Part shown: one piece after another, positions 56,105 through 58,570 of the stretch
Numbering within the stretch: the stretch's first letter is position 1
Layout of the letters: every line of letters starts with the position of its first letter
Assembly: GCA_002477545.1 (NCBI GenBank)
Contig: DLQJ01000007.1
Coordinates: 19,942 to 83,941, forward strand
Reading direction: 5' to 3'
DNA: 64,000 bases
Source: Patescibacteria group bacterium UBA7435
Lineage (GTDB): Bacteria > Patescibacteriota > Minisyncoccia > Phycocordibacterales > UBA918
The notes under the pieces: generated by a model
The model's database searches: none
Seen by the model: only the letters and a program-made list of their open reading frames with translations
Told to the model about the DNA's origin: nothing
Program-made: the position numbers and the translations under genes

Positions 56105-57601
56105 TTACACATCCAAATCAAGTTCCTTCTCTACATCATCTTCGTTAAGATTAAGCGAATCAGCAATTTCTTCGATGATATCGTCCTCGTCTTCGTCTTC
56201 GTCAAATGTAAACTTCACGTCCACATCAGATTCAAAATACACACGAACTAGGAATGTTGAACCATTAAGTGAGGTAGTTATCTTATCAAGATCCCCATAA
56301 TCAAATTCAACAAGATCTTCAATATCATCTTCGTCCATATCTAATTCATCTGCAATTTCCTCGATAATATCTTCTTCGTCTTCGTCTTCAACAGTGAATT
56401 TTTCATCATCGCCATTGTCATATTCAACTTTCACTCTTGCTTCACCTTCTTTAATGTCTACTTCAATGACATCAATGTCGTCTGAATTGTTGCCACCACC
56501 TCCAATCTCATCAACAGCTTCCTCAGCGAGATCTTCAGCCTCTTCGGCTAATTCTACAGCTTCGTCATATTCTTCGTCATCTAAAGCATCACGTGCCTCA
56601 TTGTATAACTCGCGCGCTTCGTCGTAGAGTTCATCTGCATCGTCAATATCGTCACCATCATCATCTGCTTCCTTAATTTCATCTCGTGCCTTATCGATTG
56701 CTTTATCAGCATCTTCAATTGCATCTTCAGCATCGTTTTCATCTGAATTGTTACTTGATTTTTTTGAATCAAAATCTAAGTCATCTTCATCAATAAGTGA
56801 TCGAACTTCAGATTCTGATGCTCCAAGTTTCTTCGCAATCAATTCAATAAGGTCATCTCCATCCTCAGGGTACAAGATGATATCACGGTTACGTGTACCA
56901 TTTGTCTGGTAACTTCGCACAATATACTCGTCATCGTCATTAGACAACGTAATTGATCGCACTACATTTGATGAAGATATCACTGGTGTAGTTACCGGAG
57001 TCTGGGTTGTAGATGCTCCTGCAACAACTGGTGCGGGTACTGACTTCTTGAGTACGTCTTCTGGATAATTTCCAGCTGGATATGCCGCGAAGAACACCTC
57101 GAGCAATGCTCGAGTCGATGGTCCAACTACCCCTACAGGATCAAGGTTAAAGCGTGACTGAAAGAGTTTAATAGCTTCTTGTGTCTTTGGCCCAAAAAAT
57201 CCAGAAGATACTCCATATGGATAGATATCACTATCAGTCGCCAAAAGTGTCTGTATTTTTTTAATATCATCATTAGTGGAACCGTAGGCAAGATCAGTAC
57301 CAAGCGTACTCCCCGCCTGTGATCCCTGTACTGCAGGAGTTGGTGTTGTTACTGATGTTGAAGAAACTAACGCAACTAATTCAGCCCGAAGTGACTGCAT
57401 TTCCGCAATAATTTGATCAATGCGCTCTAAAGCACCTGATACGTCTTGTGCATTTGCTGTATGTGTCGCAAAGGAAAAACCAAGCATCGCAACCATAAAG
57501 AAAGAAAATAACTGTTTGAACATACCCAAAGATTTAAATAATAGTACCTTTATTATACCTTGGCTGACACAGCCAGCAAATGCACTCGTACACATACCCA
57601 A
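56105..57601 (-). CDS. Secreted peptidoglycan-binding-domain (PG_binding_1-like) protein with highly acidic repeated C-terminal modules
   Basis: Signal peptide, coiled coil, 'IKKIQTLLATDSDIYPYGVSSGFFGPKTQEAIKLFQ', then two or more repeats of '...KFTV/FDEDEDEDDIIEEIAD.L...EDD'. Confidence 0.55.
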   Translation of the reverse strand: MGMCTSAFAGCVSQGIIKVLLFKSLGMFKQLFSFFMVAMLGFSFATHTANAQDVSGALERIDQIIAEMQSLRAELVALVSSTSVTTPTPAVQGSQAGSTLGTDLAYGSTNDDIKKIQTLLATDSDIYPYGVSSGFFGPKTQEAIKLFQSRFNLDPVGVVGPSTRALLEVFFAAYPAGNYPEDVLKKSVPAPVVAGASTTQTPVTTPVISSSNVVRSITLSNDDDEYIVRSYQTNGTRNRDIILYPEDGDDLIELIAKKLGASESEVRSLIDEDDLDFDSKKSSNNSDENDAEDAIEDADKAIDKARDEIKEADDDGDDIDDADELYDEARELYNEARDALDDEEYDEAVELAEEAEDLAEEAVDEIGGGGNNSDDIDVIEVDIKEGEARVKVEYDNGDDEKFTVEDEDEEDIIEEIADELDMDEDDIEDLVEFDYGDLDKITTSLNGSTFLVRVYFESDVDVKFTFDEDEDEDDIIEEIADSLNLNEDDVEKELDLDV

Positions 57602-57649
57602 AAGGCAGCCATATGTGGCTGCCTTTTGGGTTGCGACTTGATTTAGTTT

Positions 57650-58570
57650 TTATACATCATCATCGTCATCATAGTCATCATCGTCATCGTCATCGTCACC
57701 GTCATCATCATCGTCATCGTCATCGTCATCGTCATCGTCATCTGAATCATCTTTAGATTCTTCATCAGATTCATCAGCTAACTCATCGACAATTTCTGCT
57801 TCAAGATCATCATCGAGTACATCGACGTCAAGAGCCTCAGCGACTGCATCGAGTACATCTTCTTCTTCTGAAGAAGATAATTCGACGTCGTATTCGTCTC
57901 CATCAAATGTAAAAGAAACTTTTACTGATCCATCATCTTCAATTTCGACCTCAACTTCAAATTCGTCTCCCTTATCTCTGTCTCTATCGTCGTCATCATC
58001 GTCATCGTCATCGTCGTCACGAGCGTCTTTAAACTTATCTCGTAATCGCTTACAAACTTCGTCGCTACCTCTACCGCTATTGTCGCACTTGATCTTAATT
58101 CTATGTTCAACTTTGTCTCGTATTCCAGGAGCTCTCAAAAGTCCTTCGGGAATATTCTCCCCAAACTTTTCTTGGAAATACTCTTCCAAGAGAAGGCGCG
58201 TATCGTCATCTAACCTTCCAGAAATTTCAATTTCGTGACGCTGCTGGAAACGTTTAAGTGCTTCTCGGGTAAGTGGGCCAAAGTAACCACTGGTAATTCC
58301 TTCAGGGTAAATCGTTGAATCACTTGCGAGTAATTCTTGAATCTCACGAATATCATCATCTGACATTCCTTCTTCAAGGCCATCCTTAATTACGTCATTT
58401 ATTTCTCCTCGAACTTCTGCAAGTTGTGATTGCAGCTCCTCAACTTGAGCTAAAAGTGACTGCAATGTCGCAAGTAGGTCCGCAAGGCTATCTGACTCAG
58501 CCTTTACAGGAGCAGTCATTACCATCACTGCAAAAAGCCCCAACAGCAAACCAGTAATTTTAATTTTCAT
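57650..58570 (-). CDS. Paralogous secreted PG-binding-domain protein with poly-Asp tracts
   Basis: Signal peptide, coiled coil, 'IREIQELLASDSTIYPEGITSGYFGPLTREALKRFQ', D10 and D30-like tracts and a 'VKVSFTFDGDEYDVE' module. Confidence 0.55.
   Translation of the reverse strand: MKIKITGLLLGLFAVMVMTAPVKAESDSLADLLATLQSLLAQVEELQSQLAEVRGEINDVIKDGLEEGMSDDDIREIQELLASDSTIYPEGITSGYFGPLTREALKRFQQRHEIEISGRLDDDTRLLLEEYFQEKFGENIPEGLLRAPGIRDKVEHRIKIKCDNSGRGSDEVCKRLRDKFKDARDDDDDDDDDDDRDRDKGDEFEVEVEIEDDGSVKVSFTFDGDEYDVELSSSEEEDVLDAVAEALDVDVLDDDLEAEIVDELADESDEESKDDSDDDDDDDDDDDDDDGDDDDDDDDYDDDDDV
57654..57743. repeat. (GAY)n trinucleotide tract (about 90 nt) encoding poly-Asp; a second shorter tract lies at 57987-58020
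   Basis: 'catcgtcatcatagtcatcatcgtcatcgtcatcgtcaccgtcatc...' seen directly. Confidence 0.8.

Follow-up and report, generated by a model that had tools for sequence, protein, structure and literature searches.

Paralogous Patescibacteria proteins that join a predicted peptidoglycan-binding domain to a recurrent acidic module and poly-aspartate tracts

Results

Two neighbouring genes encode compositional outliers

We analysed a 64,000-nucleotide stretch of the genome of Patescibacteria group bacterium UBA7435 (assembly GCA_002477545.1, contig DLQJ01000007.1, forward-strand positions 19,942 to 83,941; hereafter the window, in whose coordinates all positions are given). Our subject is a pair of neighbouring minus-strand genes, A and B, whose products appear to be exported, non-enzymatic proteins that combine a peptidoglycan (PG)-binding domain with very acidic distal regions. 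Both open reading frames (ORFs) were confirmed in the ORF list of the window, and the coordinates of all features are collected in Table 1. The product of gene B comprises, in order, a signal peptide, a heptad helix, a PG_binding_1 domain, a region with a possible cysteine loop, a run of 11 aspartates (D11), one acidic module and a poly-Asp tail. The product of gene A opens with the first three of these elements and continues with module 1, a three-helix bundle and modules 2 and 3.

The ORF tool places the start of gene A at a TTG codon (57601; 498 aa), and a 496-aa call (window 56105-57595) is present on 15 contigs, 13 of which were grouped as having the same neighbours. Judged by its homologues, the start of gene A is instead the ATG at 57523 (472 aa), as shown by an exact 472-aa database entry (P0001), by the lengths of about 120 homologues and by a conserved M1, which is present in at least 90% of 66 aligned sequences. 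Between B and A lies a hairpin (CCCAAAAGGCAGCC-loop-GGCUGCCUUUUGGG) with a computed energy of -31.4 kcal/mol (z = -7.8), a stability matched by 0 of 200 shuffled sequences, and this hairpin is likely to act as the terminator of B. Given its stability, and given the terminator-like hairpin that follows A, the two genes are probably separate transcription units.

Asp and Glu together (D+E) account for 26% of the residues of A and 36% of those of B, as compared with 3-20% in the remaining 59 ORFs of the window. Runs of D/E reach 8 residues in A and 14 in B, and at most 4 in the other 59 ORFs, and the net charges of the two proteins are about -96 and -83, respectively. Since both are compositional outliers among the 61 ORFs of the window, their acidity is not a chance feature. 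The proteins are already in databases, where they are labelled 'peptidoglycan-binding protein'; the exact B protein was absent from the protein collection searched, though its gene has been called on contigs. Literature searches on acidic peptidoglycan-binding proteins of Patescibacteria, poly-aspartate and DUF5667 returned nothing on these proteins.

Table 1. Features of genes A and B and of nearby genes discussed in the text (window coordinates)
Feature	Position	Strand	Description and basis
Gene B	57650-58570	-	306 aa; ORF list, B family (n = 87 homologues), DNA the same in four assemblies
B putative signal peptide, aa 1-24	58499-58570	-	MKIKITGLLLGLFAVMVMTAPVKA, followed by ES; read from sequence; A24 conserved
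B long heptad helix, aa 29-66	58373-58486	-	AlphaFold2 helix H29-66; putative coiled coil
B PG_binding_1 domain, aa 71-125	58196-58360	-	Pfam 44.7 bits; pLDDT 88-96
B-family motif IPxGLLRAPGI and two cysteines (C162, C173), aa 139-173	58052-58156	-	Alignment; basic region
B internal D11 tract, aa 185-195	57986-58018	-	DNA read, Tandem Repeats Finder
B acidic beta-beta-beta-alpha-alpha module, aa 203-270	57761-57964	-	HMM match 2.9e-11
B C-terminal poly-Asp tail, aa 274-306	57653-57751	-	DD-S-D14-G-D8-Y-D5-V; DNA read, Tandem Repeats Finder; pLDDT 44-48
Strong hairpin between B and A	57592-57634	-	RNA fold
Gene A	56105-57523	-	472 aa; ORF list, exact match P0001, n = 188 homologues, 66-sequence alignment
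A putative signal peptide, aa 1-25	57449-57523	-	MFKQLFSFFMVAMLGFSFATHTANA, followed by QD; read from sequence
A heptad helix, aa 28-56	57356-57442	-	AlphaFold2 helix H28-56
A PG_binding_1 domain, aa 84-141 (110-167 in 498-aa numbering)	57101-57274	-	Pfam 38.0 bits; pLDDT 94-98
A module 1, aa 190-253	56765-56956	-	Diverged and less acidic; HMM match 1.1e-10; pLDDT 89-93
A acidic three-helix bundle, aa 262-340	56504-56740	-	DUF4398-like; AlphaFold2, pLDDT 90-98
A module 2, aa 351-409	56297-56473	-	HMM match 1.6e-19; pLDDT 88-90
A module 3, aa 411-472	56108-56293	-	HMM match 2.3e-13; pLDDT 88-91
Bidirectional terminator-like hairpin, 13-bp stem	56060-56089		Terminator scan; between convergent gene A and ORF 55351-56049
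Na_Ca_ex family protein	52051-53004	-	Candidate cation/Ca2+ exporter, syntenic in most related loci
P-type ATPase, Cation_ATPase_N + Cation_ATPase_C	46917-49607	-	Candidate cation/Ca2+ exporter
HMM, hidden Markov model; pLDDT, predicted local distance difference test.

The N-terminal halves of A and B are shared

The original prediction, made by reading this DNA alone, described A and B as paralogous secreted proteins with a signal peptide, a coiled coil and a PG_binding_1-like domain, and each of these elements is supported, the coiled coil as a heptad helix. A and B are 37% identical across 148 N-terminal residues (E = 1e-22), and by this alignment they are paralogues. Both begin with a hydrophobic stretch that ends in an A-x-A-type site (ANA/QD in A, VKA/ES in B), as fits a signal peptide. 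The alanine at position -1 of B (A24) is conserved in at least 90% of 41 homologues, and the consensus of the A family (66 sequences) is likewise a hydrophobic N-terminus followed by AQ; cleavage of both proteins would be expected at these sites. The helix that comes next carries conserved leucines at heptad spacing. Within it, L39 and L46 of B are invariant and Q47 and L50 at least 90% conserved in the same 41 homologues, while R34, M42, L45 and E48 of A are at least 90% conserved in the 66 A-family sequences. This helix, as modelled by AlphaFold2 (AF2), may allow the proteins to oligomerise.

The PG_binding_1 domain was confirmed by HMM search, with both proteins scoring above the Pfam gathering cut-off for this family (PF01471; 23 bits), and the predicted folds agree with the assignment. 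For B, the top Foldseek match was the N-terminal domain of SleB (6tci; root-mean-square deviation (rmsd) 1.4 Å over 59 columns, TM-score (target) 0.72, probability 1.00). For A it was a Zn DD-peptidase (1lbu; rmsd 1.3 Å over 72 columns, probability 1.00), and CtpB was matched as well. The E-values of these matches are modest (0.03), as the domain is short. Library scans found no catalytic Pfam or NCBIfam domain in either A or B. The window also encodes an S11 D-Ala-D-Ala carboxypeptidase, MraY, FtsW, MurG and an M23 peptidase, and the presence of these genes for murein synthesis and remodelling indicates that the PG-binding domain has a substrate in this cell.

Poly-Asp tracts are confined to B, and the repeats of A are predicted to fold

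Beyond the shared half, the two proteins differ in how their acidic residues are arranged. Both were initially thought to carry calsequestrin-like acidic tails, with tracts of D10 and about D30 encoded by (GAY)n runs in one of them. Such tracts do exist, as D11 and as a tail with 29 Asp in 33 residues, but only in B, where the tail (aa 274-306) has low model confidence; A has no tail of this kind, and a Pfam scan to E <= 1 gave no homology to calsequestrin. An imperfect run of GATGAC and GAY units, (GATGAC)n/(GAY)n, codes for the tail of B; in it Tandem Repeats Finder detects a period-6 array (57655-57742; 14.7 copies, 86% matches, score 127). Five GATGAC units form a perfect core, (GATGAC)5, and the tract is interrupted by GGT, by TAT and by irregular usage of GAT and GAC.

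Between the PG_binding_1 domain and the D11 tract, B-family proteins share a segment in which P141, G143, L144, L145, A147, P148, G149, I150, C162 and C173 are invariant in 41 homologues. Its pLDDT is only 52-65, and its two cysteines could possibly form a disulphide loop. The D11 tract itself lies in a stretch of pLDDT below 50 (aa 182-200) and is followed by the acidic module, for which AF2 predicts strands at 206-210, 216-222 and 225-231 and helices at 236-247 and 254-273, with mean pLDDT values of 84-97 in 10-residue blocks across aa 201-270. The low AF2 confidence in the D-tracts (pLDDT 41-48) suggests that these are probably disordered.

In A, the repeats noted earlier ('F.VEDEDE.DIIEEIAD') are indeed present, at aa 351-409 and 411-472, but AF2 models them as folded domains and not as tails. 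A further copy of the unit, module 1, precedes the bundle (strands 188-196, 199-206 and 215-217; helices 222-233 and 237-243). The bundle consists of helices 262-288, 294-315 and 319-340. It scores 17.3 bits against DUF4398 (PF14346), under the gathering cut-off of 27.9; kinship is nevertheless likely, since many of the listed A homologues carry a precomputed PF14346 match. The loop E-A-D-D-D-G-D-D-I-D (aa 285-294) is conserved in the A family, and its first part, E-A-D-D-D-G (aa 285-290; window 56654-56671, minus strand), links bundle helices 1 and 2. This part loosely resembles DxDxDG, and D289 is invariant in the 66 sequences, being the sole invariant A-family residue outside the PG-binding region. 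We regard aa 285-290 as a candidate for a specific metal site, as read from the alignment. In one non-acidic member of the B family, the counterpart of this loop is DATTGSTTE.

The acidic unit is a recurrent domain with a predicted fold

An HMM of the acidic unit, built iteratively from the repeat units of homologues, recognises three copies in A, the third of which (aa 190-253) is more diverged, and one in B. When run with family alignments, AF2 models the unit as three strands and then two helices, about 60 aa in all, with pLDDT of about 88-97. Homologues of A and B follow a common plan of signal peptide, coiled coil, PG_binding_1 domain, linker, acidic tracts and one to four units of about 60 residues, to which an acidic helical domain may be added, as well as an acidic tail in some members.

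Among 391 aligned modules, about 15 columns are 93-100% hydrophobic, and the columns between them, presumably exposed, contain 40-80% Asp/Glu with none fixed. Along the beta strands, hydrophobic and acidic residues alternate. No well-populated column of this alignment is more than 80% acidic, a pattern that speaks for selection on surface charge and against a defined site of chelation. In addition, the same module is kept in weakly acidic homologues (12-16% D+E; 12% in P0175 and 13.5% in P0030), the family median being about 27%. Taken together, the hydrophobic core columns, the lack of a fixed acidic column and the retention of the module in less acidic homologues suggest that charge is selected as a bulk property. 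As modelled, the module is a true folded domain in which the surface has been pushed towards negative charge, and it has no recognisable chelating motif.

Adaptation to salinity was also considered as a cause of the acidity and was set aside: strongly acidic members occur in metagenome-assembled genomes (MAGs) with non-marine-sounding names (for example isolate GFS_12610, P0159), and weakly acidic ones exist.

The module was matched only weakly by known families. Per-member scans against a local copy of Pfam gave weak matches spread over 81 families, among them Lsr2, HalOD1, the phage terminase small subunit and helix-turn-helix (HTH)-type families. A search of PDB sequences with the module profile returned nothing better than E = 0.01, the weak matches including the PB1 domain of Bem1 and FliD (not significant, E >= 0.01). 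Foldseek searches of the PDB with full-length models of A and B returned only the PG-binding domain, other alignments having an rmsd above 10 Å or a low probability. Two candidate families were rejected. The Lsr2 dimerisation domain (PF11774) gave weak matches to 7 of 50 modules (best 9.6e-5) and an hhalign probability of 11% over 21 columns, with a manually entered Lsr2 N-terminal query sequence, and no Lsr2 chain appeared in the PDB profile searches with the module. PF28550 (DUF8436) had a 'faint' match on the 472-aa A entry alone and not on the other 119 listed homologues.

The module extends well beyond A and B. A profile search of 1.84 billion representative sequences recovered 470 clusters (50% identity) at E <= 1e-3, 159 of them at E <= 1e-10. 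Of 130 further proteins with the module, 47 carry DUF5667 and 20 carry PG_binding_1; with a stricter HMM, two to four copies were found in 119 of the 134 listed matches. The exported DUF5667 proteins bear the module at their C-terminus, in two or three copies. From these searches, we conclude that the module is a recurrent, uncharacterised extracytoplasmic domain outside the current coverage of Pfam and the PDB.

These architectures bear on whether A and B might be architectural proteins of the envelope (a spacer, a scaffold, or an S-layer anchor or subunit) with the acidity that is usual for extracytoplasmic proteins. A chain of rigid small domains joined to a coiled coil would suit such a role, as would the repeated modules at the C-terminus of other exported DUF5667 proteins and the standing of A as a core gene of its clade; other window proteins with hydrophobic N-termini (judged by eye) are acidic too, with pI values of 4.0-4.4. 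The acidity of A and B (26% and 36% D+E) nevertheless lies well apart from that of the other apparently exported window proteins (at most 19%), and the homopolymeric Asp tracts of B would be superfluous in a scaffold. Moreover, a Pfam scan found no known S-layer or SLH domain. An architectural role seems rather unlikely to us.

The Asp tracts are stable in this allele and plastic in the family

All 921 nucleotides of gene B are identical in four separately listed assemblies (ENA ERZ23491656, JGI 3300001351, ENA ERZ27295458 and JGI 3300025577); the comparison was made at the level of assembly consensus, for contigs located by exact matches to the proteins of gene A and its flanks. This agreement shows that the (GAY)n tract is not an artefact of assembly, a concern that had been raised when the repeat was first described. 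We take JGI 3300001351, 3300009426 and 3300025577 to be North Sea pelagic metagenomes. A fifth contig, from a short-read assembly (Logan SRR5821670_22976, L003), starts or ends inside the tract, at window position 57729. This break is consistent with the behaviour expected of a de Bruijn assembler at a low-complexity repeat and says little about polymorphism. A DNA pattern scan of metagenome contigs for other tail lengths gave no match, and it also missed the known contigs.

Variation was evident among relatives. Within seven B-family clusters of at least 90% identity, six of eight internal indels (1-5 residues) fall in acidic tracts, and all are in frame. The longest Asp run is 10 among the listed homologues and 14 in the B protein of the window. 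P0347 and P0136, which belong to one such cluster, differ by a tandem duplication of the entire 77-residue acidic module, so that module copy number evidently changes on short time scales. The hypervariable tail length expected from slippage is thus not seen in the allele studied here, which is the same in four assemblies, but the acidic tracts of its relatives are plastic on short evolutionary scales, as slippage predicts, to judge from these alignments.

It is a further step to suppose that the locus is a contingency locus, in which slippage in (GAY)n would give populations a hypervariable tail length and act as an adaptive switch, one that might help, for instance, against phage or grazers. 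The perfect (GATGAC)5 core, the short-read assembly that breaks within the tract and the small indels between B-family proteins of at least 90% identity could all be cited for it. The repeat units, however, are of 3 or 6 nucleotides, and length changes in multiples of three stay in frame and give no on/off switching; the tract is interrupted as described above, gene B is identical base for base in four assemblies, and the overall pattern is that of ordinary low-complexity region evolution. With changes in frame and the allele of the window stable, we do not regard the tract as a contingency switch, and we consider this explanation very improbable.

Gene neighbourhood and taxonomic range

All homologues of A and B that have an organism name come from Patescibacteria MAGs (Paceibacterota, Kaiserbacteria, Parcubacteria and a generic 'Saccharibacteria' label from one pipeline). 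The genes lie in a conserved block, FAD oxidase - PIF1 helicase - (B) - A - YgjP-like - (MsrAB) - Na/Ca exchanger - TruB, which was found at 20 of 20 loci with full-length A.

Patescibacteria commonly live attached to other cells, and it is conceivable that A and B are host-interaction factors, with the PG-binding domain attaching to host or prey walls, or inhibiting or guiding wall hydrolases, and with the polyanion serving as an electrostatic shield or decoy. PG_binding_1 typically serves wall hydrolases as a targeting domain, the structural matches were SleB, SleC, CtpB and a DD-peptidase, and the family is confined to Patescibacteria MAGs. Yet the conserved block has no linked hydrolase, secretion or pilus gene, and A and B have housekeeping genes as neighbours and are conserved by vertical descent; the sequence, for its part, does not distinguish the PG of a host from that of the cell itself. 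We hold a role in host interaction to be quite improbable.

The neighbourhood also includes two candidate exporters, both less than 10 kb from the acidic proteins, and these offer weak, circumstantial support for a link to calcium. On this reading A and B would form a dedicated high-capacity Ca2+ store or a biomineralisation template, controlling Ca2+ or carbonate nucleation at the surface together with the neighbouring exporters. The D11 and D14/D8/D5 tracts of B would be in keeping with such a store, as would the alternation along the strands, which gives carboxylate-covered sheets, and the DxDxDG-like loop of the A bundle with its invariant D289. In most loci, moreover, a Na_Ca_ex gene is kept at a distance of 3-5 kb, and the P-type cation ATPase of the window is encoded at 46917-49607. 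The exchanger, however, shares its block with TruB, the PIF1 helicase and YgjP, which points to general synteny and not to an operon. Furthermore, a Pfam scan to E <= 1 detected no calsequestrin, EF-hand or other Ca-binding family in A or B, no acidic position of the module is fixed, non-acidic family members exist (P0175), and many relatives lack B, the poly-Asp protein. A dedicated calcium store is thus, in our view, unlikely.

Several other features of the neighbourhood were recorded. The MsrA-MsrB fusion of the same conserved block (PMSR + SelR; 53108-54475, minus strand) combines a hydrophobic segment at its N-terminus with an acidic linker, and is by its sequence probably an extracytoplasmic methionine-sulfoxide reductase. 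The FAD_binding_4/FAD-oxidase_C protein (60414-62390, plus strand) has an N-terminal extension of about 80 aa (KKKITAKKAVVKKSAKKTVRKVKTVTKKVIKKVATKKKVTAKKTPAKKTIAKT) in which Lys, Ala, Thr and Val abound and which resembles histone H1, so that an extremely basic extension is encoded two genes from the extremely acidic A and B. Convergent with gene A is a gene for a 232-aa protein (55351-56049, plus strand), which has no Pfam match. By eye it contains three repeats of about 45 aa ('F.V.W....FVA.Y...'), with a fourth similar unit in the small upstream ORF at 54934-55263 (plus strand), and a 26%-identical homologue occupies the same position in the closest relative. That relative also has two extra small genes and a Fic-domain/Phage_30_3 gene pair upstream of the block.

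Discussion

A proposed source of fixed charge in the wall

Starting from what was observed here on the structure and paralogy of the genes, their domains and predicted folds, their conservation and taxonomic range, and the stability of the repeat, we propose that A and B are anciently duplicated, Sec-exported, non-enzymatic wall proteins of a Paceibacteria-type bacterium that give murein a fixed negative charge and loosely bind cations. We put the probability of this explanation at roughly 0.45; the binding of PG in vivo and the role in charge or cation handling are what we infer from the sequences. After cleavage of the signal peptide, the heptad helix would oligomerise the protein, and the PG_binding_1 domain would hold it non-covalently on the murein layer. 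The remaining chain would then present very dense carboxylates: in A, on three modules and the three-helix bundle, with Asp or Glu at nearly every exposed position, and in B, on one module and two disordered poly-Asp tracts. In this way the negative charge of the wall would be fixed, and Mg2+ and Ca2+ would be stored with low affinity and high capacity, in a protein counterpart of the teichoic acids of Firmicutes. The poly-Asp tracts would be plastic through in-frame slippage, and would not amount to a switching device.

Several observations weigh against this proposal. B is present in only about 8 of the 20 syntenic loci, and in the closest relative (A 70% identical; L004-L008) it is absent, the PIF1 helicase gene being followed directly by A. 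From this patchy distribution, the duplication appears to be old and B dispensable. In a few members of the family the acidity is only moderate, which implies that charge is not essential for the core function. The two candidate exporters sit among unrelated housekeeping genes and so do not specifically tie the locus to Ca2+. Finally, the genome sequence covered, as it bears on the content of teichoic-acid genes, amounts to 64 kb.

Patescibacteria have been inferred to have one membrane plus murein, and in one lineage of the group rhamnose polymers have been suggested in place of teichoic acids (PMC11809585). One may ask whether, in a lineage of minimal capacity for biosynthesis, polyanionic, murein-held proteins such as A and B have assumed the part of teichoic acids or other anionic polymers, charging the wall, storing Mg2+/Ca2+ and controlling wall enzymes; we consider this broader idea doubtful.

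If the proposal that A and B charge the wall is correct, it would define one envelope component of a very large and almost wholly uncultured group, in which the cell surface mediates dependence on other cells. It would also offer a candidate, open to testing, for the way in which charge and cation binding arise in a wall that has no obvious anionic polymers. Independently of that role, an extracytoplasmic domain of about 60 aa, with about 470 clusters at 50% identity, has now been delineated. Current views are not overturned, and we see the importance of these findings as moderate: they provide a lead for the biology of the Patescibacteria envelope and for domain annotation.

Comparison with known systems

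The module shares a beta-hairpin-helix pattern ('TVxFxxDGxxYxVxV..T...L..V') with the Lsr2 dimerisation domain, the flagellin 'IN' motif and PB1-like beta-hairpin-helix units, a likeness that we treat as convergence on a common supersecondary motif. Likenesses also extend to two uncharacterised families: exported DUF5667 proteins share the acidic module (DUF5667 occurs in 47 of 130 further module proteins), and DUF4398 resembles the three-helix bundle of A, with the A protein of the window scoring below the DUF4398 cut-off.

Very high contents of Asp and Glu, with homopolymeric runs of Asp, are known from calsequestrin, which is built of thioredoxin-like domains, and from Asp-rich mineral-associated proteins such as Aspein and Asprich. 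A and B are like these proteins in their acidity and their Asp runs, and by analogy a low-affinity, high-capacity binding of cations seems plausible. Unlike calsequestrin, to which no kinship in sequence or domains is seen at E <= 1, A and B carry most of their charge on beta-beta-beta-alpha-alpha domains, are bacterial and are predicted to be held in the wall.

In Firmicutes, wall teichoic and lipoteichoic acids, which are phosphate polymers attached covalently or through a lipid anchor, bind Mg2+ and Ca2+. A and B would resemble them as a murein-held polyanion with fixed negative charge, and might by analogy be functionally equivalent; they differ in that the polyanion is a gene-encoded protein, predicted to be held by a non-covalent PG-binding domain. 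With PG_binding_1 wall enzymes (SleB 6tci, the Streptomyces Zn DD-peptidase 1lbu, CtpB and SleC), A and B have in common the helical domain and export. Unlike those enzymes, they are without a catalytic domain, and the partners of PG_binding_1 are here a coiled coil, an acidic module, a helical bundle and poly-Asp. What is new in A and B, as read from their sequences, is the fusion of PG_binding_1 wall proteins to an undescribed acidic domain and to poly-Asp.

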